Source: Pseudomonadales bacterium
GTDB taxonomy: Bacteria > Pseudomonadota > Gammaproteobacteria > Pseudomonadales > Azotimanducaceae
Assembly: GCA_007131295.1 (NCBI GenBank)
Contig: SLQW01000036.1
Coordinates: 16,766-80,765 of the forward strand
Direction: 5' to 3'
DNA: 64,000 nt
Shown here: piece after piece, positions 9,852-26,219 of the stretch
How positions within the stretch are numbered: position 1 is the stretch's first letter
How the letters are laid out: each line of letters starts with the position of its first letter
Position numbers and translations under genes: made by a program
The notes under the pieces: generated by a model
Seen by the model: the letters and a program-made list of their open reading frames with translations, nothing else
Told to the model about the DNA's origin: nothing
Databases searched by the model: none

Positions 9852-10826
9852 ATGTTTCTGCACGAAAGCGCGCGCACCCATGCCGCCCCGTTAGCGGCCA
9901 CCGCAGCCGAGCAAACACCTTTTTCTGCCCTCGCTCCCGCGGGCCCGGCGGCCGCGGCCATCGCCGAGGTCTGGTGGTGGATGTTCTGGGGCAGCCTCGT
10001 CGTGCTCGCTTTGGTCTGCGTTCTGGCGCTGCACGCCGTCCTGCGGCGCAGCGACCGCCCGGTTCCCCTCAGTGCCCGCACGCTGATTCTCGGTGGCGGA
10101 ATCGCCCTGCCGCTCAGCGTCATCACGGTCCTGCTCTTTCACGGTGTTCGCAGTGGAGATGCCATGCTGCCGCAGGACGTGGGTGTGGAACCGTTCCGGG
10201 TCGAGGTCACGGCTCGGCAGTGGTGGTGGGAAGTCCGGTATCCGGACGTTGACGGCGCACCGCTCTTTGATGCCAACGAGCTGCTGGTCCCGGCCGGCCG
10301 GCCCATCGACATCGTGCTCGAGGCGGACGACGTGATTCACTCGTTCTGGGTTCCGCGACTCGGCGGCAAGCTCGATGCCATTCCAGGCAAGACCAACGTT
10401 CTGCGCCTCACGGCCGACGAGCCGGGGGTTTATCGGGGGCTTTGTGCCGAGTTCTGTGGCGCTCAGCACGCGCGCATGGGTTTTCACCTGCTTGCGTTCG
10501 AACCTGAAGAGCTCGAAGGCAGGCTGGGCGCGCGGGCCGAGGCAGGTCTCGACAGGGAAGGCGCCGGATCGCAGGCCTTCGCGCAGCACTGCGCCGCTTG
10601 TCACAGCGCCGATGGCCGGATTGGGGAGCCCGCAGCCGGCCCCAATCTGGCTGCGGTGCGCCAACGAAGGCATCTGGTGGCGGGCTGGCTGCAGAACGAG
10701 CCCGGACAGCTGCGGCGTTGGCTGGACGATCATCAGACGATCAAGCCCGGCAACCTGATGAGTGACTTCAGTCATGTCGACCCCGCTGAGCTTGATGCCA
10801 TCGCTGAGTGGCTGGAGGGTCAATGA
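9852..10826 (+). CDS. coxB: Cytochrome c oxidase subunit II with fused C-terminal cytochrome c domain (caa3-type)
   Basis: CuA site HSFWVPRLGGKLDAIPGKTN...GLCAEFCGAQHARM. A C-terminal heme c motif CAACHSADG is present. Confidence 0.92.
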   Translation: MFLHESARTHAAPLAATAAEQTPFSALAPAGPAAAAIAEVWWWMFWGSLVVLALVCVLALHAVLRRSDRPVPLSARTLILGGGIALPLSVITVLLFHGVRSGDAMLPQDVGVEPFRVEVTARQWWWEVRYPDVDGAPLFDANELLVPAGRPIDIVLEADDVIHSFWVPRLGGKLDAIPGKTNVLRLTADEPGVYRGLCAEFCGAQHARMGFHLLAFEPEELEGRLGARAEAGLDREGAGSQAFAQHCAACHSADGRIGEPAAGPNLAAVRQRRHLVAGWLQNEPGQLRRWLDDHQTIKPGNLMSDFSHVDPAELDAIAEWLEGQ

Positions 10827-13315
10827 CTCTCAGTCATATAAATATCGCTGAGCTCGAGCGGGTCTGGGCGAATCCGTCTGGCTGGCGCCGGCTGACGGTT
10901 GTCAACCACAGCGTCATCGGTAAGCGCTTCCTGGTCACGGCGATGTTCTTCTTCGCTGTGGGTGGCGTGCTGGCCATGCTCATCCGTGCGCAGCTCGCGA
11001 CACCGGACTCCGCCTTCCTGGGTCACGCGGCCTACAACCAGGTCTTCACCATGCACGGCACGGTGATGATGTTCCTGTTCGCGATTCCCGCCATCGAGGG
11101 GCTCGCGCTGTACCTGCTGCCGAAGATGCTCGGTGCCCGCGACCTGGCCTTCCCGCGCCTCAGTGCATTCGGCTACTACTGTTATCTCTTCGGCGGGCTG
11201 ATCCTGCTCGGCGCCCTGGTCTTTGGTGTTGCACCAGACAGCGGCTGGTTCATGTACACACCGCTCTCGGGTGCGGTCTTCACGCCGGGGATAAACGCGG
11301 ATGTCTGGCTGCTGGGGATCACCTTCGTCGAGATTTCCGCGATCGCCATCGGCGTCGAACTCTGCGTGTCGATACTCAGGGTGCGTGCGGCGGGCATGTC
11401 GCTTGACCGCATGCCCCTGTTCGGCTGGTACCTGCTGATCACGGCCGGGATGATCATCGTCGGCTTTCCGCCTTTGATTCTCGGCAGCATCCTGCTCGAG
11501 GTGGAGCGCGCCTTCGACTGGCCTTTCTTCGATCCGACGCGTGGGGGAGACCCTCTGCTCTGGCAGCACCTCTTCTGGCTGTTCGGGCACCCAGAGGTCT
11601 ACATCATTTTCCTGCCCGCGGCGGCCATCGTCTCGACTCTGATCCCGGTGTTCGCCCGCCACGCCATCGTCGGCTACACGCTGCTGGTAGTGAGCATCGT
11701 GGCCACCGGGTTCATCAGCTTCGGTCTCTGGGTCCACCACATGTTCACCGTGGGGATTCCGCATCTCGCTTTGGTTTTCTTCTCCGCGGCGAGCATGCTG
11801 GTGGCGCTACCTACGACGGTGCAGGTTTTTGCCTGGATCGCCACGCTGTATGCCGGCAGGCCGCGCCTCAGCGTGCCCATGCTGCACCTCTTCGGATTCC
11901 TGTTCGTGTTCGTCTTCGGTGGCCTGACCGGCGTGATGCTTGCTCTGGTGCCCTTCAACTGGCAGGTCCACGACACTCATTTTGTCGTCGCCCATCTGCA
12001 CTACGTACTCGTGGGCGGTTTCCTGTTCCCGCTGTTCGCTGGTCTGTACTACTGGCTGCCCCACGTCACCGGCCGGATGTCCTCGCAGGGACTCGGCGTG
12101 GCGGCGTTCTGGCTGATCTTCGGAGGGTTCAATCTGACTTTCTTCGGCATGCACTTCACCGGTCTGCTGGGCATGCCGCGCCGCATTTACACCTACCAGA
12201 GCGAACTCGGCTGGGATCTGCTCAATCTGCTGTCGTCGCTGGGCGGTTTCGTCATGACCATCGGGCTCGGTCTGCTCGTGCTCGACGTGGTGATGCACTG
12301 GCGCTTTGGCCGCCGGGTGAAGCGTGACCCCTGGCAGGCTGGGACTCTGGAGTGGGCACAGGCCCTGCCGCCTCCCCTTTACAATTTCGTCAGCCTACCC
12401 GAGGTGGCCGGCAGGGATCCGCTCTGGGACGACCCGGATGTGGCGGCAAAGCTCGAGCGAGGTGAGGGGCGCCTGACCCGGCCGCGGGAGGGCTGGCAGG
12501 AAACCCTGCTGGTGGCGCCCATGAGCGGTCGCCCGGACGGGGTTCTGCGGTTGCCGGGCCCGAGCTGGTGGCCGTTCGTAGCTGCCGTGGGTCTCGCGGG
12601 CTTCTTCGTCGCCTTTCTGTTGGGGGCGTACGCGTATTCGCCGCTGGGCCTGCTGGTGACGCTCTGGGCCTGTCTGCGCTGGGCCTGGGACACTGGATCG
12701 GACGCGGATCCCGATCCGCTGGACTCCGGGGCCGGGGAGTCCCTCACGGTACATGACGTGGCTGGTGCGCAAGCGCCTGGCGCGCTCGGGCTCGTGTTCA
12801 CGCTGGTTGCGAACGGCACGCTGCTGGCGTCGCTGCTGTTCGGCTACGGTTTTCTCTGGACCGTGGGGCCCGATTGGCCCCCCGAGGACTGGATGGAGCT
12901 GTCCGCGCTAGTGGTAGCGGGGCTCGCTGTCCTGCTGCTGCCGGGCTGGTGGGCGGCGCGCCGCGCCCACGCCGTACGCGGCGGCGATGCCGCGTCGCTG
13001 CAGCGCCTGCTGCTCGGCGCGACCCTGGCCGGAGTGCTGGGGGCACTGGGCTTCTTCCTGCTGCCGGTGCTGGCTGAGCTGGCGCCGCGAACGCACGCCT
13101 ATGATGCGATTGCCACCGTCATGGCAGGCTACGCCGGATTCCATGCGGCGCTGGCCGCACTGCTGTCGGGATGGGCAGCGTGGCGTCATCGCTGCGGCCG
13201 TGTTTCGGCGCTGCGAGATCTGGATCTGCGTATCGCCCGTGGATTCTGGACCTACACCCTTGGCACAGGTGCGCTGATTCTCACCGCACTGGCGCTGCCG
13301 GGCATGCTGGCATGA
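10823..13315 (+). CDS. coxA: Cytochrome c oxidase subunit I fused to a subunit III-like C-terminal domain
   Basis: Heme-copper oxidase subunit I motifs are present: FTMHGTVMMFLFAIP, WQHLFWLFGHPEVYIIFLP, HHMFTVG and HFVVAHLHYVL. About 300 extra C-terminal residues carry about 5 more TM helices. The ATG at 10823 overlaps the coxB stop (ATGA) and follows GGAGGG. Confidence 0.92.
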   Translation: MTLSHINIAELERVWANPSGWRRLTVVNHSVIGKRFLVTAMFFFAVGGVLAMLIRAQLATPDSAFLGHAAYNQVFTMHGTVMMFLFAIPAIEGLALYLLPKMLGARDLAFPRLSAFGYYCYLFGGLILLGALVFGVAPDSGWFMYTPLSGAVFTPGINADVWLLGITFVEISAIAIGVELCVSILRVRAAGMSLDRMPLFGWYLLITAGMIIVGFPPLILGSILLEVERAFDWPFFDPTRGGDPLLWQHLFWLFGHPEVYIIFLPAAAIVSTLIPVFARHAIVGYTLLVVSIVATGFISFGLWVHHMFTVGIPHLALVFFSAASMLVALPTTVQVFAWIATLYAGRPRLSVPMLHLFGFLFVFVFGGLTGVMLALVPFNWQVHDTHFVVAHLHYVLVGGFLFPLFAGLYYWLPHVTGRMSSQGLGVAAFWLIFGGFNLTFFGMHFTGLLGMPRRIYTYQSELGWDLLNLLSSLGGFVMTIGLGLLVLDVVMHWRFGRRVKRDPWQAGTLEWAQALPPPLYNFVSLPEVAGRDPLWDDPDVAAKLERGEGRLTRPREGWQETLLVAPMSGRPDGVLRLPGPSWWPFVAAVGLAGFFVAFLLGAYAYSPLGLLVTLWACLRWAWDTGSDADPDPLDSGAGESLTVHDVAGAQAPGALGLVFTLVANGTLLASLLFGYGFLWTVGPDWPPEDWMELSALVVAGLAVLLLPGWWAARRAHAVRGGDAASLQRLLLGATLAGVLGALGFFLLPVLAELAPRTHAYDAIATVMAGYAGFHAALAALLSGWAAWRHRCGRVSALRDLDLRIARGFWTYTLGTGALILTALALPGMLA

Positions 13316-19548: not shown

Positions 19549-20418
19549 ATGCAGCGCAGCAGTGAAGAGGGAGGTCTGCAGACCGTGCGGGTCAGCTCCT
19601 GGAACGAACTGCAGGAGGAGCTGTTCGCAGATTCCTGGAACGCCAAGATCGGCCGCTTCCGGTCCCACCACGCGTTCCGCGGCCTGTCTGATGCGCGCTA
19701 TCCGCTGGCAACGACGTTGATGCGCCTTGGTGGCCACTTTGCGGAGCTCGAGCGGCACCTGGTGCGTAACTTCCGCAAGTACGCCCACGGCAGCGTGGTC
19801 GAGCAGGATCAGCTCTGGAACTGGGTCTCGGTGGCCCAGCACTACGGACTCCCGACCCGGCTGCTGGACTGGACCAATTCACCCTATGTGGCGCTCCACT
19901 TCGCGACGGCCAACGTCACCCGGTTCGATGTCGACGGCGTCGTCTGGGTGGTGGATTACACCGGCGTGCATCAGCAGCTGCCGCAGACGCTCGAGGCGGC
20001 CCTCGAGCGGGAAGGCGCGACGATCTTCACCGGGGAGATGCTGTCCAGGGAGATCGCGACGTTCGAGGAGATGACGGCCATCTCCGACGAACCCTTCGCA
20101 GTGTTCTTCGAGCCGCCTTCCATCGATCCGCGCATCTATCAGCAGTATGCGTTCTTCTCCGTCGTCTCCGACAACCGCATGGCCTTCGACGACTGGCTGC
20201 GTGCGCATCCGGAGTTCGGCCGCAAGATCGTGATTCCCGCCGAGCTCAAGTGGGAGGTTCGCGACAAGGTGGATCTCGCGAACATCAACGAACGTACCCT
20301 GTTCCCCGGACTCGAGGGCCTGTGCAGCTGGCTGCGCCGCTACTACAGCCCGAGTCCGACGCTGCTCGCATCCGATCCGAGCCTTTCCCCGCCGAACGAC
20401 TACGACCACGGAGCCTGA
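19549..20418 (+). CDS. FRG domain-containing protein (function unknown)
   Basis: From ORF 19390..20418, trimmed to the ATG at 19549 after GGAGAGG. It carries HAFRGLSDARYPLATTL ... WNWVSVAQHYGLPTRLLDWTNSPYVALHFA, the FRG motif followed by the QHYGLPTRLLDWT core of Pfam FRG. Confidence 0.75.
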   Translation: MQRSSEEGGLQTVRVSSWNELQEELFADSWNAKIGRFRSHHAFRGLSDARYPLATTLMRLGGHFAELERHLVRNFRKYAHGSVVEQDQLWNWVSVAQHYGLPTRLLDWTNSPYVALHFATANVTRFDVDGVVWVVDYTGVHQQLPQTLEAALEREGATIFTGEMLSREIATFEEMTAISDEPFAVFFEPPSIDPRIYQQYAFFSVVSDNRMAFDDWLRAHPEFGRKIVIPAELKWEVRDKVDLANINERTLFPGLEGLCSWLRRYYSPSPTLLASDPSLSPPNDYDHGA

Positions 20419-20420
20419 CC

Positions 20421-21254
20421 ATGCCAACGGAAGGCCTGCGCGTGGGATTGGTGCAGTTCACCGCGACCACCTCCATGGCGCGCAACATCGAGCTCACCAT
20501 GGTCGCGACCCGCGCTGCCGCAGCCCAGGGTGCGGAGCTCGTCTGCCTGCCGGAAGTCGCGAACCTGATGCAGCGGCAGCGGCGGGAAGCGGCTAAGGTC
20601 GTCTGTTTCGAGGCGTCCGATCCTGCCTTGGCAGCCTGGCGGGCGCTCGCAGGTGAGCTCGGGATCTGGCTCCACGCGGGATCGCTGGTGCTGCGCAGCG
20701 AGGAAGACGAGCGCTTCGTCAATCGTGGTCTGCTGATTGGCCCTGACGGTGGCATCAGGGCGCGTTACGACAAGATCCACATGTTCGATGTCGATCTCGA
20801 CGGCGGTGAAAGCTACCGGGAGAGCAGCGGTTTCCGGCCGGGGGAGCGGGCCGTGCTCGCACAAACGCCCTGGGGCGGCTATGGCCTGACGATCTGCTAC
20901 GACCTGCGCTTTCCCCATCTCTACCGGCTGCTGGCCCAGGCGGGAGCGCGCATCCTCGCGGTGCCTTCGGCGTTCACGCGGCAGACGGGTGCCGCCCACT
21001 GGCACACCCTGCTCCGTTCCCGGGCCATCGAGACGGGGTGCTTTGTGCTCGCTGCGGCCCAGTGCGGCGACCACGAGGATGGTCGCCAGACTTACGGCCA
21101 TGCCTTGGCAGTGTCGCCCTGGGGTGAAGTGCTCGCTGATGCGGGCGAAACGCCGGGCGTGGTCGTGGTCGACCTCGATCTCGCCGCGGTGGAAGCGGCG
21201 CGCGGCAAGGTGCCTTCCCTGTTCCACGACCGCACGATTGCGCCACCGGCTTGA
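20421..21254 (+). CDS. Carbon-nitrogen hydrolase (nitrilase superfamily, Nit/omega-amidase-like)
   Basis: From ORF 20250..21254, trimmed to the ATG at 20421, 2 nt after the FRG gene stop. The E-K-C triad contexts are LVCLPEVANL, YDKIHMFD and LTICYDLRFP. Confidence 0.85.
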   Translation: MPTEGLRVGLVQFTATTSMARNIELTMVATRAAAAQGAELVCLPEVANLMQRQRREAAKVVCFEASDPALAAWRALAGELGIWLHAGSLVLRSEEDERFVNRGLLIGPDGGIRARYDKIHMFDVDLDGGESYRESSGFRPGERAVLAQTPWGGYGLTICYDLRFPHLYRLLAQAGARILAVPSAFTRQTGAAHWHTLLRSRAIETGCFVLAAAQCGDHEDGRQTYGHALAVSPWGEVLADAGETPGVVVVDLDLAAVEAARGKVPSLFHDRTIAPPA

Positions 21255-21264
21255 GCCTTTCTGT

Positions 21265-22152
21265 TCAGCGCTCGGCGGCTGCGGCCTCGTTAGCGTAACC
21301 CCGCAGCAGCGCGTGCAGCGTTTCCGACGCAAGGCCGTGCAGAACGAGGCGGAAGCCGGCTCGCAGCGTGCTCAGAGGCACCAGCGGGTGGCGGTTGTTG
21401 ACCTGAGCCAGATACCGGTGCCCGTTCAGCAGATCGGCGCAGTAGCTGCCGATGGTCTCATCGAGCTGCAGCGAGTTGGTGGCGCGCCAGAAATCATCGT
21501 CGGAGAGGAAGATCTGGTAGACGGGCGTGAAGAGCTCGATTGCCGTTTGCAGATCCAGCACGTTGGTCCAGCGGTTCGGCATGTCCTCGAGGCGCACCGG
21601 CGGCTCTGACAGATCGCTGAAGTTGACCCGCTCTGGTGGCGTCAGCCGCAGATCGAGGTCCTTGAGCTGTCGGTTTAGCGCGATCACGAAGTTGAACAGG
21701 TTGAGATCGTGGCGCACGAACACATGGTCGCGCAGGTCGGCGATGGCCAACGGCCGCAGGGGATCCGTCGCCACCTCGACGCCCTGCGGCGCGTTGCGGG
21801 CGATGAAGGCCAGGATGTCGCTACCGATGTGAAAGTGGCGCAGGATCAGCCAGTTCGCTTCCGGTCGCACGAAGCGCGTCAGGCCCCAGACCAGCAGCGC
21901 GTGCAGTGCGCCGGAAGCGCGTGCGTTGCGGGGCATGACGATTTTCACGAGCTGGAACAGGATGATCAGCAGCCGCGCCAGCGGCCGAACCAGCGGCAGG
22001 AAGTACTGCCTGGATGCCGAACTCGAGTCCGCCAGCCATGCCTGTTTGACGTGATCCCCGAGCGGCGTGCTGCGATCCAGGTACAGCGCCAGCCAGGGGT
22101 TCGGATCCGACGTATCGTGGGCCAGGGTTTCAAAGTCGGGAGCATGCTTCAT
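21265..22152 (-). CDS. Hypothetical protein, no family recognised; translationally coupled to the KAS III-HDO fusion gene
   Basis: 295-aa ORF with strong third-position GC bias and a balanced amino-acid composition. It has one hydrophobic stretch, YFLPLVRPLARLLIILFQLVKIV. Its ATG overlaps the upstream gene's stop (ATGA at 22149-22152). Confidence 0.7.
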   Translation of the reverse strand: MKHAPDFETLAHDTSDPNPWLALYLDRSTPLGDHVKQAWLADSSSASRQYFLPLVRPLARLLIILFQLVKIVMPRNARASGALHALLVWGLTRFVRPEANWLILRHFHIGSDILAFIARNAPQGVEVATDPLRPLAIADLRDHVFVRHDLNLFNFVIALNRQLKDLDLRLTPPERVNFSDLSEPPVRLEDMPNRWTNVLDLQTAIELFTPVYQIFLSDDDFWRATNSLQLDETIGSYCADLLNGHRYLAQVNNRHPLVPLSTLRAGFRLVLHGLASETLHALLRGYANEAAAAER

Positions 22153-24098
22153 GCCGCATCCTCGAGCTGCATGAGGTAGAGCTCGGCCGTGCGACGCGCG
22201 GTGTCGACGATATCTGCCGTCACGACATTGCGGTCCGGGGCCCGATCGAGCACCAGCTCCACGGCGCGCAGCCAGCGCGCAAGGTGCGCCATGTCGTTCT
22301 CGCCGTGATAGTGCAAGAACCTGAACACCGGCCCCAGTTCCTTCAGCTGGCGCCGAATCAGCGGCAGCAGCGCCGGGATCAGGCGCTGGCCGGAACCCTC
22401 GATGATGTAGATCGCCCCGAGCAGCCCGACGGCATCAGCTTGCGCGGCACGGGCGTGCAGGTAGGCATTCAACGCCTCGCCCCCGGGGTTGCGGCGCAAG
22501 GCTTCCAGGTCGCTGATGGCGCCTCCGGCCCGGCGATAGTCCTCGAACAGGATCCGGAAGTCGTTCTGTTCCTCGGCTGCGTGGCCCTCGATCAGCGTGC
22601 GCAAGGCGTCGTATCGGTCGGAGAGATTCGCGACTGCCGTGCGCATCCAGCGCGTACCCTCGCGGACCTGAGGAATCCAGTCGCCCATCCACCTGAGGTA
22701 GTCCTCCCGGGTGAACGTATGGGTGACGATGCGGCGCACCGGGCCGCTGCGCCAGGCCCGAGAGCGGAAGTCGCTCCAGACCGCGGCGAGGTCGAGCAGA
22801 AGTTGCGCGAGCTCAGGTTGCCTGGCTGCATCGACGGCTCCTGGGTCGTGCGGCGGCGGTGCTGCCAGCTCAGGTTCCGGATCCAGGACGGATTCGCGAA
22901 TCCCCGGAGCAGTGCGCAGGGGCTTGCGCCCGCCGGCATCAGGGCCGACCACTTCGAGCATGGCAAAAGCGACGGTGAAGCGACCCGACTCGGGAACGAA
23001 CAGCAGGATGCGTTCACCGGGTGCTGGTGAACGCTCGCGCAGGAAGTCGTCGAGCATGACGAAGATCGAGGCCGCGCCCGTGTTACCGCGGGTGCTCAGA
23101 TTCGTATACCAGCGCTCCTCAGGAATCGCGAGTTCCGCTTTCTCCAGGCAATCCTTTACGACCTGACGGAAGCGTTCGGAAGAGTAGTGACAGAGAAAGT
23201 GGTCGATGCCTGCGGGATCTACCGCGTTGCCTCGCACCAGATCCGCATAGGCATGAATGCCGACGTCGAACAGGTGCGGCAGCAGGCGGATGTCCTGCCG
23301 CAGCAGCAGGGCGCCGGAGCGTTCCGCTGCCGCCGCGTTCGCATGATCCAGCCAGCCCATGGCACCTTGCCTGGGCAGCCCCATTTGCATGCACAGCGGG
23401 TAGTCACCGGCGTGGCTGACGCTGTGCACGAAGTGCAGCCGGAGGCTGTTTCGGCCAGGCGGCGGCGCGGCGCTCAGGCGCCAGGCGCCCGCGGCATCGG
23501 AAAGCATCCAGCGGAGAAAGTGGGCATCGAAATCGAGATCGTAGTCGTCCGGCGCGAACCGGCTGCACTTGAACAGGCGTGACGGCGCTTCGCTTGCAAC
23601 CACCATGGCGGAGTCGTGCTCGCCGCGATCCACCGCGCGGGCCGCATCCGCAAGTGCCTGCATGCCCGAGGCGCAGACGCCGTGATGACTCGTCGTAGCC
23701 AGCGGCGCCCAGCCGAGCTCCGCCTGTACCTGATTCGCCAATCCCGGTAACAGGAGATCGCCGCCGGAAGTCGCGCTGGCGAGCAGCCCCACCTGTTCGT
23801 CACTCGTTTCCGCCGCACAGGCTCGTACCGCCGCGGCAGCCATGGCGGTGACGCTGAAACGGGTGCTGCCCTGCTCATCGATCGCGTAGTGACGGGTCCG
23901 GATGCCGTTCTCCTTCAGGATGCGGCGCTTGATGCGGTCGGACATCCTGTTCACGGGTGCAACGAAGCGGTCGATAGCCGAGTTGTCGACGGCGGGTCCA
24001 GGCAGGAAGCTTCCTGTCCCGTCGATGTAGACGCTTGCGAAGGGCACCACGCGATCCATGACCTGTTGCTCGAAGAAACCACTCGTTAGGGTCAGCAT
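22149..24098 (-). CDS. Fusion protein: N-terminal 3-oxoacyl-ACP synthase III (FabH/KAS III)-like condensing enzyme plus C-terminal heme-oxygenase-like (iron-containing redox enzyme family) domain
   Basis: The N-terminal ~385 aa carry candidate triad residues Cys142 (HHGVCASGMQAL), His304 (IDHFLCHYSSERF) and Asn339 (TRGNTGAASIF). A Pro-rich linker reads PEPELAAPPPHDPG. The C-terminal ~220 aa are helical and contain IEGHAAEE, IIEGSG and FLHYHGENDMAH (H-x3-D-x2-H). Confidence 0.8.
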   Translation of the reverse strand: MLTLTSGFFEQQVMDRVVPFASVYIDGTGSFLPGPAVDNSAIDRFVAPVNRMSDRIKRRILKENGIRTRHYAIDEQGSTRFSVTAMAAAAVRACAAETSDEQVGLLASATSGGDLLLPGLANQVQAELGWAPLATTSHHGVCASGMQALADAARAVDRGEHDSAMVVASEAPSRLFKCSRFAPDDYDLDFDAHFLRWMLSDAAGAWRLSAAPPPGRNSLRLHFVHSVSHAGDYPLCMQMGLPRQGAMGWLDHANAAAAERSGALLLRQDIRLLPHLFDVGIHAYADLVRGNAVDPAGIDHFLCHYSSERFRQVVKDCLEKAELAIPEERWYTNLSTRGNTGAASIFVMLDDFLRERSPAPGERILLFVPESGRFTVAFAMLEVVGPDAGGRKPLRTAPGIRESVLDPEPELAAPPPHDPGAVDAARQPELAQLLLDLAAVWSDFRSRAWRSGPVRRIVTHTFTREDYLRWMGDWIPQVREGTRWMRTAVANLSDRYDALRTLIEGHAAEEQNDFRILFEDYRRAGGAISDLEALRRNPGGEALNAYLHARAAQADAVGLLGAIYIIEGSGQRLIPALLPLIRRQLKELGPVFRFLHYHGENDMAHLARWLRAVELVLDRAPDRNVVTADIVDTARRTAELYLMQLEDAA

Positions 24099-24134
24099 AG
24101 GTCATGGAGTGCCAGCCGGGGGATGTTCGGAATC

Positions 24135-25463
24135 TCAGTCGTCCCCGTACCAGTGCATGCCCGCGAAGCGCATGTGCACCCGGCGCCCATGCGGGCGGTA
24201 TTCGAAACGGAACCGGAACACATCCGGTTCCGTTTCGTCGACGAAAGTGCGCTCCCCCACGTGGCGCAGGCGCCCGCCCGGCAGGGGATCAGGCATGCGC
24301 ACATGGAGCGCGCCGTCCTCACGGACAAAGCTGGCGCTGAAGGCGCCGAAGTCGTAGTCGCCGGTCCAGGCATCGATATCGATGGCCGCGATGGGCAATT
24401 CCGTGTAGCTGGGCGGTGGCTTCAGAAAGATCCGCCGGGCCAGTTCCCGCTCCACTGCGTCCATCGCCACGTCGCCGAGGTTGCCGAGCACGACGATGAC
24501 GAGCTCGTCATACGGGTAGAGCGCTGCACTGGCGGAGAATCCACGGTTGCTGCCGAGATGGCCGAACTTGGCGCGTTCGCCGAACGGGATCAGGGAGAAG
24601 CCGTTGGCGTAGTCGAGGCGGGTGCCGTCGGCGAGCGTGCGCCGCTGCCAGAGCCGCTCCACAGCCCGCTCCGAGAGGACTTCGCCGTTGGCCAGAGCCC
24701 GGAGCCAGCGCGCCAAGTCGCGTGCGCTGCCGCAAAGTGCGCCCCCGCCGCGGAGCCAATCCATGTTCAGAAGCGGTGCCGGTTCGAGCCCGTCAGGTCC
24801 GATCTGGTAGCCGCGTGCCGTCTCCGGTAGGTCTGTCCGTGATGAGCAGTGATGGAGACTGGTCAAACCCAGCGGTTCGAAGAAACGTTCCTCCAGAGCT
24901 TGCTCGTAGGGCATGCCGGTCATCCATTCGACCAGCTGCGCCAGCAGCAGGTAGTTGGCGCTGCTGTACGACCAGTGTGTTCCGGGCGGAAAGTCGCTGG
25001 GCAACCGGCGCAGCAGGCCGAGCATCTCGGCGCTGCTGCGATCGGGATCCATGATTCCGGCGACGAACTCCGGCTCGAACAGCGGATCGCGGATGCCGCT
25101 CGTGTGATCGAGCAGATCGTGCAGCCGCAGCTCCGCCGGCAGGCGGTCGAAGTCGGGAAGATAGCGTCGCAGCGGCGCATCGAGCGACAGTCTGCCGGCA
25201 TCTGCAAGGTCTACCACGAGAGCGGCGAGGAATTGCTTGCCGATCGAGGCAAGCTGGAAGACGGTATCCGGCGTTATTGGCGTGCCCGACTCGAGGTCGG
25301 TGACCCCGAAACCCTCGGCGTACACGACACGGTCCCCATCCATGACCACCACGGCCATGCCCGGTAACTCGCGGTCGGCGGCAATGGCCTCGACGCGAGC
25401 GGCGAACGTCGAATCGACTGCTCCAGCCGTGGCGAACAGCAACCCGAGAGTCAGACCAAGCAT
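24135..25463 (-). CDS. Serine hydrolase, beta-lactamase/transpeptidase-like fold
   Basis: S-x-x-K motif (ASIGKQF) and Y-x-N motif (YSSANY). A hydrophobic N-terminus, MLGLTLGLLFATAGAV. GGAG lies upstream of the ATG. The stop is 36 bp upstream of the KAS III-HDO gene on the same strand. Confidence 0.85.
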   Translation of the reverse strand: MLGLTLGLLFATAGAVDSTFAARVEAIAADRELPGMAVVVMDGDRVVYAEGFGVTDLESGTPITPDTVFQLASIGKQFLAALVVDLADAGRLSLDAPLRRYLPDFDRLPAELRLHDLLDHTSGIRDPLFEPEFVAGIMDPDRSSAEMLGLLRRLPSDFPPGTHWSYSSANYLLLAQLVEWMTGMPYEQALEERFFEPLGLTSLHHCSSRTDLPETARGYQIGPDGLEPAPLLNMDWLRGGGALCGSARDLARWLRALANGEVLSERAVERLWQRRTLADGTRLDYANGFSLIPFGERAKFGHLGSNRGFSASAALYPYDELVIVVLGNLGDVAMDAVERELARRIFLKPPPSYTELPIAAIDIDAWTGDYDFGAFSASFVREDGALHVRMPDPLPGGRLRHVGERTFVDETEPDVFRFRFEYRPHGRRVHMRFAGMHWYGDD

Positions 25464-25607
25464 CGCTAGGCTCCTATGCTGTCAGGGCGGCGATGCTGCG
25501 CGGCGCGCGCCCGAACCGCAAGGACGGGCAGGCGAAGGCTTCCTGGCGGCTTGTTCTGCGGTCCCCGGTTGGTAATCTGGCGCGCCGATTCGAGGACGCC
25601 GGAGACG

Positions 25608-26219
25608 ATGGCACGCAGATCCTACCGCCGGGCCAACGGCCTGATGCTGCTCGAGGCGCGAGATCCGCGCATGCGCGCGCTGAAACGGTCCGGCCACGTG
25701 GCCGAGATCCATGGCGACCGGGTCTGGGACTCGAGCTTCCTGCTCATGCGGCAGCTGCAGCATGAGCCGCTCGAACGCCGGGCTCGGGTGCTCGAGATCG
25801 GCTGCGGCTGGGGCCTGCTCGGGCAGTTCTGCGCGAAGCGCTTCGGTGCCCGGGTCCACGGTATCGATGCCGACCCGAACGTCCTGCCCTATCTCGATCT
25901 GCATGCGGCGGTGAACGGGGTTCGCATGACCGCGGAGCGGCGCCGCTTCGAGCAGCTTACGACCGCTTTCCTAAGTGATTTCGACGTGGTGCTCGGGGCC
26001 GACATCTGCTTCTGGGATTCGCTGACCAGGCCGCTTTTCAATCTGATCCGACGCGCCCGCCGCGCCGGCGTCGGGCGCATCCTGATCGCCGATCCCGGAC
26101 GCGCGCCGTTTCAGGCTCTGGCTTCACGCTGCGAACGGCAGCTCGATGCGGTCTCGCGCGTCGCATTGGAAATCCGGCGGCCGGTGCATGCAGCGGGCGA
26201 CGTGCTCGCCATCGGCTGA
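25608..26219 (+). CDS. Class I SAM-dependent methyltransferase (lysine-methyltransferase-like, Methyltransf_16-type)
   Basis: From ORF 25476..26219, trimmed to the ATG at 25608 after GGAGA. VWDSSFLLMRQL...RVLEIGCGWGLLG is the motif I region, followed by VLGADICFW. Confidence 0.65.
   Translation: MARRSYRRANGLMLLEARDPRMRALKRSGHVAEIHGDRVWDSSFLLMRQLQHEPLERRARVLEIGCGWGLLGQFCAKRFGARVHGIDADPNVLPYLDLHAAVNGVRMTAERRRFEQLTTAFLSDFDVVLGADICFWDSLTRPLFNLIRRARRAGVGRILIADPGRAPFQALASRCERQLDAVSRVALEIRRPVHAAGDVLAIG

Follow-up and report, generated by a model that had tools for sequence, protein, structure and literature searches.

A StlD/DarB-clade ketosynthase fused to a heme-oxygenase-like oxidase domain, with a DUF6999 partner, in an Azotimanducaceae contig and in other bacteria

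Dialkylresorcinols, cyclohexanediones and stilbenes act as antibiotics, membrane lipids and cell-cell signals. In the described pathways DarB or StlD builds a carboxy-cyclohexanedione (carboxy-CHD) from a beta-ketoacyl and a 2-enoyl thioester, through a Michael addition and a Claisen condensation, and the aromatase DarA or StlC then converts it, with decarboxylation, to a resorcinol (PMC6836626; bioRxiv 10.1101/2022.10.20.513026). A 2019 review noted that cyanobacteria have DarB homologues but no DarA; their products are unknown, and are perhaps not carboxy-CHDs (PMC6836626). We analysed 64,000 nucleotides (the window) of contig SLQW01000036.1, from the metagenome-assembled genome (MAG) of a Pseudomonadales bacterium of the Azotimanducaceae (GCA_007131295.1). 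One of its genes joins a ketosynthase (KS) of the StlD/DarB clade to a heme-oxygenase-like di-metal oxidase (HDO) domain, and is followed by a DUF6999 gene. Whereas the canonical darABC and stlCDE systems have an aromatase and a dedicated acyl carrier protein (ACP; DarC or StlE), the window module has instead the HDO and DUF6999.

Fusion of an HDO domain to a second catalytic domain of the same pathway has a precedent in SznF, and a 2021 survey of HDOs mentions fusion solely for the SznF cluster (PMC7848743). SznF differs from the window protein in having a cupin-type partner rather than a KS, in its substrate class (N-methylarginine), and in belonging to another HDO clade. An earlier note on the window, made from the sequence alone, had described the protein as a FabH-like KAS III enzyme fused to an HDO.

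A ketosynthase domain and an oxidase domain in one protein

The N-terminal domain belongs to the StlD/DarB ketosynthase-cyclase clade, as a divergent branch, and is not an elongating KAS III. Pfam gives only the generic ACP_syn_III_C match here. With the NCBIfam models, the domain scores 313 bits over residues 23-384 for NF005293 (StlD/DarB family beta-ketosynthase; curated cut-off 450) and 255 bits for the DarB model NF053539 (curated cut-off 550), against 70 bits for the FabH model TIGR00747 (cut-off 292). We aligned 26 fused homologues (55-86% identity) and searched the PDB with the resulting profile, which found StlD of Photorhabdus (5gk0) at E 2.9e-90 and 307 bits; the best FabH came at about E 1e-17, and any FabH or OleA scored 66 bits or less. 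Foldseek comparison of the AlphaFold2 (AF2) model with the PDB likewise placed 5gk0 (E 6e-27, template modelling (TM) score 0.84, 34% identity) and 5gk2 above every FabH, OleA and PqsD entry among the matches listed. The KS core is modelled mostly at a predicted local distance difference test (pLDDT) value of 85-95.

Pairwise alignment puts Cys142, His304 and Asn339 on StlD Cys126, His302 and Asn337. Two motifs outside this triad are also common to StlD, namely FLRWMLSD(A/G)AGA and SE-x-PS (Glu170 aligned to StlD Glu154), and the residues of triad and shared motifs are invariant among the 26 sequences. The window KS therefore has the thiolase/KAS III fold, the Cys-His-Asn triad and the additional motifs of StlD and DarB, but it differs from them in lying on a separate branch, below the NF005293 cut-off, and in its covalent fusion to an HDO. 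A rough neighbour-joining tree separated the KSs associated with HDOs, whether fused or split, from a group holding Burkholderia pseudomallei DarB, StlD and a Prevotella DarB-family protein. For comparison, the bona fide DarB of a B. pseudomallei plasmid scores 600 bits. Of the FabH-like KAS III in the earlier note, the fold and the aligned triad stand, and the FabH identity falls with the TIGR00747 score.

A KS 40% identical to the window KS domain was found on a plasmid of Streptomyces sp. NBC_00008 (locus L094, 5718-13042). The cluster there encodes an ACP, the KS, a hypothetical protein, a flavin adenine dinucleotide (FAD) monooxygenase, an SCP2 protein, FabF and a P450, with no HDO and no DUF6999.

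The C-terminal domain is an HDO with a predicted set of three His and three carboxylate ligands. PF14518 (Haem_oxygenas_2) matches residues 470-641 along essentially the whole profile (positions 3-176 of 177; E 3.8e-6), at 27.2 bits where the gathering score is 28.9; the scores of six distant relatives run from 28.6 to 41.8 bits and exceed that threshold in five cases, and most of the 120 homologues listed for the full-length protein carry a precomputed PF14518 match. A profile from 24 fused and stand-alone HDO members (alignment A3) matched PDB 3dde at E 1e-13 and in register, with H506-x3-E510 on HHAHEE, E567 on a Glu, and H598-x3-D602-x2-H605 on H-x3-D-x2-H. The alignment with BesC (7twa) is weak (E 0.3), and puts E567 on a Glu and the last ligand helix on H-x3-E-x2-H. 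None of the six ligand-type residues (H506, E510, E567, H598, D602 and H605) varies among the 26 fused sequences; in the wider clade their conservation is at least 90%, and split, stand-alone versions of the domain keep them. Their invariance at 55-86% identity, together with their retention in the split versions, argues for a functional metal site.

The AF2 model of residues 416-649 is all-helical, with pLDDT 82-97. Among the 50 PDB matches listed for the full-length model Foldseek gave KS matches only. Because that list was saturated with ketosynthases, which are rare in a viral structure library, we used the latter for the C-terminal fold; viral heme oxygenase and heme-oxygenase-like proteins matched the domain there with probability 0.99-1.00 and TM 0.59-0.63. 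An exhaustive search with the domain alone among 1.84 billion proteins found 181 cluster representatives (E <= 1e-3), which indicates a small, distinct HDO clade. The known HDOs (UndA, BesC, SznF, RohS and CADD; PF14518) have the same helical fold and 3-His/3-carboxylate pattern, but no characterised one is significantly similar in sequence, the best being BesC, and the H-x3-E motif of the first helix is a further difference of the window domain.

The closest solved structure, 3dde, is a structural genomics entry from Shewanella denitrificans ('TENA/THI-4 protein, DUF with heme-oxygenase-like fold'). It differs from the window HDO in being a stand-alone protein of 238 amino acids, in its own operon without KS or DUF6999. 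We considered and rejected its membership of the same system: the 3dde family (L091 7001-7717, L092 7001-7750) sits in a conserved operon of a ~190-amino-acid hypothetical protein, the HDO and DUF3419, with no KS. The Shewanella operon continues with genes for an ACR_tran/MMPL-family transporter and an AMP-binding enzyme. This looks like another HDO cluster of lipid type. Two distant relatives of the HDO domain, P0262 (750 amino acids) and P0269 (711 amino acids), show a further multi-domain architecture: they carry an N-terminal AMP-binding (adenylation) domain and score strongly, 80-101 bits, with PF14518.

The fusion gene is an uninterrupted open reading frame (ORF) of 649 codons, and the same protein, 100% identical, is present on nine contigs (sources listed: NCBI, Logan and ENA). 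The window itself matches contig PWIV01000131.1 of a gammaproteobacterial MAG (GCA_003560295.1). All seven motifs of the earlier note were located with the residue numbers it gave: HHGVCASGMQAL (138-149, containing Cys142), IDHFLCHYSSERF (298-310, containing His304), TRGNTGAASIF (336-346, containing Asn339), the linker segment PEPELAAPPPHDPG (407-420), IEGHAAEE (503-510), IIEGSG (565-570) and FLHYHGENDMAH (594-605), of which codons 598-605 do lie at 22284-22307. Its assignment of an HDO domain, and of H-x3-D-x2-H as the last HDO ligand helix, is borne out by the PF14518, 3dde and BesC alignments, the six ligands and the Foldseek matches; the structural comparison that it proposed gave the two folds expected, StlD for the KS and heme-oxygenase-like for the C-terminus, while the profile search that it proposed fell short of the PF14518 gathering score for the window protein itself. 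A frameshift or stop splitting the ORF, which the note had set against its own claim, was not seen in the nine identical copies, nor among the 120 listed homologues, all covering at least 96% of the query.

The two domains are separated by a stretch with pLDDT below 50 (residues 391-411), in a linker whose length and sequence vary among homologues, its alignment columns being gap-rich and unconserved. Over the whole protein the AF2 model has mean pLDDT 81 and predicted TM score (pTM) 0.59. The gene product is a genuine bifunctional protein, a KS-cyclase to which some 30 residues of disordered linker tether an HDO. Translation may actually start at Met14 (ATG at 24059), since close homologues begin at the equivalent of that Met (MDRVVPF); the annotated ATG at 24098 adds 13 residues (24059-24098 of the window) that close homologues lack. 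G+C is about 0.66 and flat over the region, and so gives no hint of foreign DNA. Feature coordinates are collected in Table 1.

Table 1. Features of the KS-HDO locus, in window coordinates
Feature	Position	Strand	Extent or detail	Basis
DUF6999 gene, 295 aa	21265..22152	-	ATG overlaps the fusion TGA (ATGA at 22149-22152)	PF22523
KS-HDO fusion gene	22149..24098	-	649 aa including annotated start; stop codon 22149-22151	ORF list and translation
HDO domain	22152..22853	-	aa 416-649	Pfam, profile, AF2, Foldseek
Third ligand helix, His598-x3-Asp602-x2-His605	22284..22307	-		invariant in fused set; aligned to 3dde, BesC
Glu567 (IIEG motif), second ligand helix	22398..22400	-		invariant in 24/24 of alignment A3
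First ligand helix, His506 and Glu510 (H-x3-E)	22569..22583	-		invariant in fused set; >=90% conserved in wider clade
Interdomain linker, Pro/Ala-rich	22854..22946	-	aa 385-415	pLDDT and alignment
StlD/DarB-clade ketosynthase-cyclase domain	22947..24032	-	aa 23-384	NCBIfam, PDB profile, Foldseek, AF2
Asn339 codon (= StlD Asn337)	23082..23084	-		invariant; aligned
His304 codon (= StlD His302, residue mutated in PDB 5gk2)	23187..23189	-		invariant; aligned
Catalytic Cys142 codon (= StlD Cys126)	23673..23675	-		invariant 26/26; aligned to StlD
Beta-lactamase-fold serine hydrolase	24135..25463	-	36 bp upstream of fusion gene	Pfam PF00144, 239 bits

The DUF6999 partner, distribution and surroundings

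The earlier note overlooked a third component. The gene downstream of the fusion matches PF22523 (DUF6999) at 408.9 bits over profile positions 1-272 of 275, with a gathering score of 27. We extracted and clustered the ORFs of 83 loci and counted gene positions over 82; in 79 of these a DUF6999 gene (~300 amino acids) comes immediately after the fusion, on the same strand and at a median distance of 0, the other loci being cut by contig ends. DUF6999 is an obligate, translationally coupled partner, almost always present.

DUF6999 has 3882 homologues, every one annotated as hypothetical or as DUF6999. Their alignment has a mean column identity of 68% and many invariant His, Asp and Glu residues, and the AF2 model (pLDDT 84.5, pTM 0.86) is all-helical. 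Foldseek found no fold match for it in the PDB (best E 0.77, TM below 0.2), nor was there any PDB sequence match. Two identities were tried. A second HDO or di-iron domain finds no support, with an hhalign probability of 0.3% against the HDO domain besides the negative PDB searches. A divergent DarA was rejected, DUF6999 being all-helical where the putative DarA has a flavodoxin-like N-terminus, with an hhalign probability of 0.2%. Tailoring, substrate delivery and scaffolding are candidate roles for DUF6999.

A darABC-like operon on the B. pseudomallei plasmid, encoding a 318-amino-acid putative DarA, the DarB mentioned above and an ACP, provided tblastn queries. Neither the window nor any other fetched locus gave a match to its putative DarA, a query with a flavodoxin-like N-terminus and no family assignment of its own; its ACP likewise matched nothing in the window or in the fused and split loci fetched.

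The full-length fusion protein has 2653 homologues at E <= 1e-5. The 120 listed, whose coverage is given above, share 54-100% identity with it, and nearly all are 614-676 amino acids long. We scanned GTDB, taking one genome per species, and matched at least 564 loci; the best 80 of these all carry the fused gene, matching at about residues 5-649. Their hosts include Bordetella bronchiseptica and other Bordetella, Achromobacter xylosoxidans and many other Achromobacter, Alcaligenes, Variovorax paradoxus, Lysobacter antibioticus, Luteimonas, Marilutibacter, Dokdonella, Steroidobacter and Chitinimonas. The phyletic and neighbourhood survey that the earlier note had called for thus finds the fused form in all of the best-matching loci and DUF6999 as its regular neighbour. 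The fusion is real and old, and is conserved over hundreds of bacterial species.

Split versions were also found. One metagenome contig encodes a 385-amino-acid KS (424 bits on the StlD/DarB model), the stand-alone HDO P0143 (248 amino acids), DUF6999, an MMPL transporter and an acetyltransferase, and in Pseudoalteromonas sp. THAF3 the KS, HDO and DUF6999 are three adjacent genes in that order. Occurrence of the same three functions either fused or as separate adjacent genes argues that they act together.

Several other arrangements were noted. P0160 (868 amino acids; L085 4054-7073) runs from KS through HDO into DUF6999, of which it covers the first half. We considered it as a triple fusion, but the remainder of DUF6999 is encoded by the next ORF; P0160 is therefore probably a frameshifted MAG gene, most likely through a pair of frameshifts, and was not used as evidence; genes with Condensation and PapA_C domains lie upstream of it and an MMPL gene downstream. 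At L086 the gene after a KS-HDO-like fusion, P0155 (8001-9902, + strand), encodes a GH3 acyl-acid amido synthetase (9928-11394, + strand) in place of DUF6999. P0155 and its relative P0158 have two of the six ligand positions replaced (E510 by G, H605 by N or Q). A fused-gene copy of about 41% identity on the Nostoc flagelliforme plasmid pNFSY08 (L093 5995-7858) is broken into ORFs of 482 and 167 amino acids and is probably a pseudogene; the PLSDB table lists no gene there. The MAG coassembly_bin.6 (JAFIFJ01) has one fused copy on each of two contigs (L005 and L006; 80% and 79% identity to the window protein); either a duplication or a mixture of strains in the bin could explain this.

In many other genomes the module has lipid-related neighbours. 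In about 50 of 82 loci it is immediately preceded by genes of the FA_hydroxylase and FA_desaturase families; an MMPL gene follows it immediately in one split locus and after about 0.5 kb in one fused locus. This membrane hydroxylase/desaturase pair and the MMPL exporter suggest a decorated, exported lipid or signal. The FA_hydroxylase, FA_desaturase and MMPL extras are absent from the window; for the first two, tblastn over the 64 kb gave no match.

Upstream of the fusion gene in the window is instead a beta-lactamase-fold hydrolase gene (Table 1). With its ORF cluster confined to 4 of the 83 clustered loci, it was rejected as a member of the conserved module and is taken as lineage-specific. 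It may be co-transcribed with the fusion gene in the window: a promoter and terminator scan of 20800-26000 gave nothing informative, and no promoter- or terminator-like site between the two genes. On the other side, an FRG-domain gene (19549-20418, + strand) and a CN_hydrolase (nitrilase-superfamily) gene (20421-21254, + strand) run convergent to the DUF6999 gene. This pair is found near the module in the closest relatives (L002, L004 and L005) and not elsewhere.

Proposed chemistry and its alternatives

UndA and BesC carry out oxidative decarboxylation or fragmentation of free acids. We propose, with a rough probability of 0.4, that the fusion and DUF6999 genes form a two-gene lipid or small-molecule module, in which the KS-cyclase would make a carboxy-CHD and the tethered HDO would carry out its aromatising decarboxylation to a dialkylresorcinol. 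The KS domain would take a beta-ketoacyl and a 2-enoyl thioester from primary fatty-acid metabolism, as DarB and StlD do, and Michael addition with Claisen condensation would give a 2,5-dialkyl-carboxy-cyclohexanedione. Neither a ligase nor an ACP has a gene nearby. This condensation product would pass from the KS to the tethered oxidase domain, where the free carboxylate may bind at an O2-activating di-iron site and the carboxy-CHD be oxidised. The most economical HDO chemistry would be that of UndA and BesC, which are classed as desaturase/lyases (PMC7848743): abstraction of a beta-hydrogen with loss of CO2 would leave a ring double bond. The ring-unsaturated product would then tautomerise to a dialkylresorcinol, making the HDO a functional substitute for DarA.

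Placing the KS in this clade bears on two parts of the chemistry in the earlier note. Its premise of an acyl-CoA and a malonyl thioester is probably wrong, because the clade joins two fatty-acyl-derived thioesters head to head and then cyclises them, and in place of its 1-alkene a cyclohexanedione or a resorcinol is the likelier product class.

Several points weigh against our proposal. The KS is below the curated StlD/DarB cut-offs (313 against 450 bits and 255 against 550) and outside the canonical DarB/StlD clade in the rough tree, and its product therefore need not be a carboxy-CHD. For the HDO, the PF14518 score of the window protein is just under the gathering score, the similarity to the decarboxylating BesC is marginal (E 0.3), and the nearest solved relative, 3dde, is uncharacterised and comes from another type of operon. 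The chemistry assigned to both domains is drawn from homology, and DUF6999 could itself be the aromatase or decarboxylase, with the HDO doing something else.

The alternative that survives best, though we consider it unlikely, starts from the same carboxy-CHD or CHD and makes the HDO a hydroxylase or oxygenase of the ring or alkyl chain, or a cleaver of the beta-diketone, leaving decarboxylation and aromatisation to DUF6999 or to spontaneous chemistry; the product would be an oxygenated CHD or a quinone-like lipid. Besides desaturation, known HDO reactions include N-oxygenation and C-C fragmentation (PMC7848743). The window HDO belongs to its own small clade (the 181 representatives), without significant similarity to any characterised HDO, the many invariant His, Asp and Glu residues of DUF6999 are enzyme-like, and the membrane hydroxylase and desaturase genes in many loci hint at an oxygenated lipid. 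The data, however, do not favour hydroxylation over decarboxylation, and no DarA-like gene was found in any locus examined, so that aromatisation needs either the HDO or DUF6999.

The sub-cut-off scores and separate tree position of the KS would also fit a non-cyclising enzyme, like OleA, pyrone synthases or FabH, that makes a beta-keto acid for the HDO to decarboxylate or desaturate oxidatively to an olefin, an enone or a ketone, essentially as the earlier note had it. The review cited above allows that DarB homologues without DarA may not make carboxy-CHDs (PMC6836626), and UndA-type chemistry works on linear acids. We find a linear product decidedly improbable nonetheless: StlD is by far the closest relative (307 bits, where no FabH or OleA exceeds 66, and 313 bits for its family model against 70 for TIGR00747), motifs outside the triad are common to StlD, and the KS of the split system reaches 424 bits on the StlD/DarB model.

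More improbable again is an HDO that does not act on the KS product, either working upstream, for example in making or modifying one of the KS substrates, or having become a non-catalytic structural, regulatory or lipid-binding domain. The fused subclade of P0155 and P0158 is relevant here, since its loss of two ligand positions means that the KS-HDO architecture can persist without a complete di-metal site, and at a pTM of 0.59 the interdomain geometry of the AF2 model is not confident. The clade of the window protein, in contrast, keeps all six ligands in 26 of 26 sequences, as do the split stand-alone versions. Finally, that the long ORF is two adjacent genes merged by sequencing or assembly error, an idea encouraged by the MAG origin of the window and by the separate KS and HDO genes of other organisms, is effectively refuted by the occurrence of the same protein on nine contigs and of full-length fusions in many cultured strains with complete genomes, among them Bordetella bronchiseptica, Variovorax paradoxus, Dokdonella and Alcaligenes.

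Novelty and implications

We searched the literature on DUF6999, on StlD/DarB with HDO, on PF14518, on HDO similarity networks, and on diiron enzymes with ketosynthase and resorcinol, and found no description of the fusion, though a report in a subscription journal is possible; this agrees with the earlier note, which knew of no characterised enzyme with such an architecture. The comparison with darABC and stlCDE suggests a pathway of DarB/StlD type in which the aromatase and the ACP are replaced by a fused HDO and a partner of orphan fold, a new architecture.

One large group of DarB homologues that lack DarA is always accompanied by an HDO, fused or adjacent, and by an orphan-fold protein. 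This gives a concrete and testable candidate for replacing the missing aromatase. What the module adds to HDO enzymology is a new clade and a new fused architecture, and maybe a new reaction type, with a substrate that can be guessed from the attached domain. The module, of two to four genes, is present in hundreds of species, which include culturable and genetically tractable opportunistic pathogens.

A broader claim is possible, and we put it forward tentatively: that KS-HDO and DUF6999 make a widespread proteobacterial lipid or signal that has gone unrecognised, the HDO carrying out an aromatising oxidative decarboxylation new to its superfamily and DUF6999 being an enzyme of new fold. If so, the producers would include Bordetella bronchiseptica, Achromobacter xylosoxidans, Alcaligenes, Variovorax, Lysobacter and other genera, and the substrate of the HDO would be a carbocyclic beta-keto acid handed over by the tethered ketosynthase.

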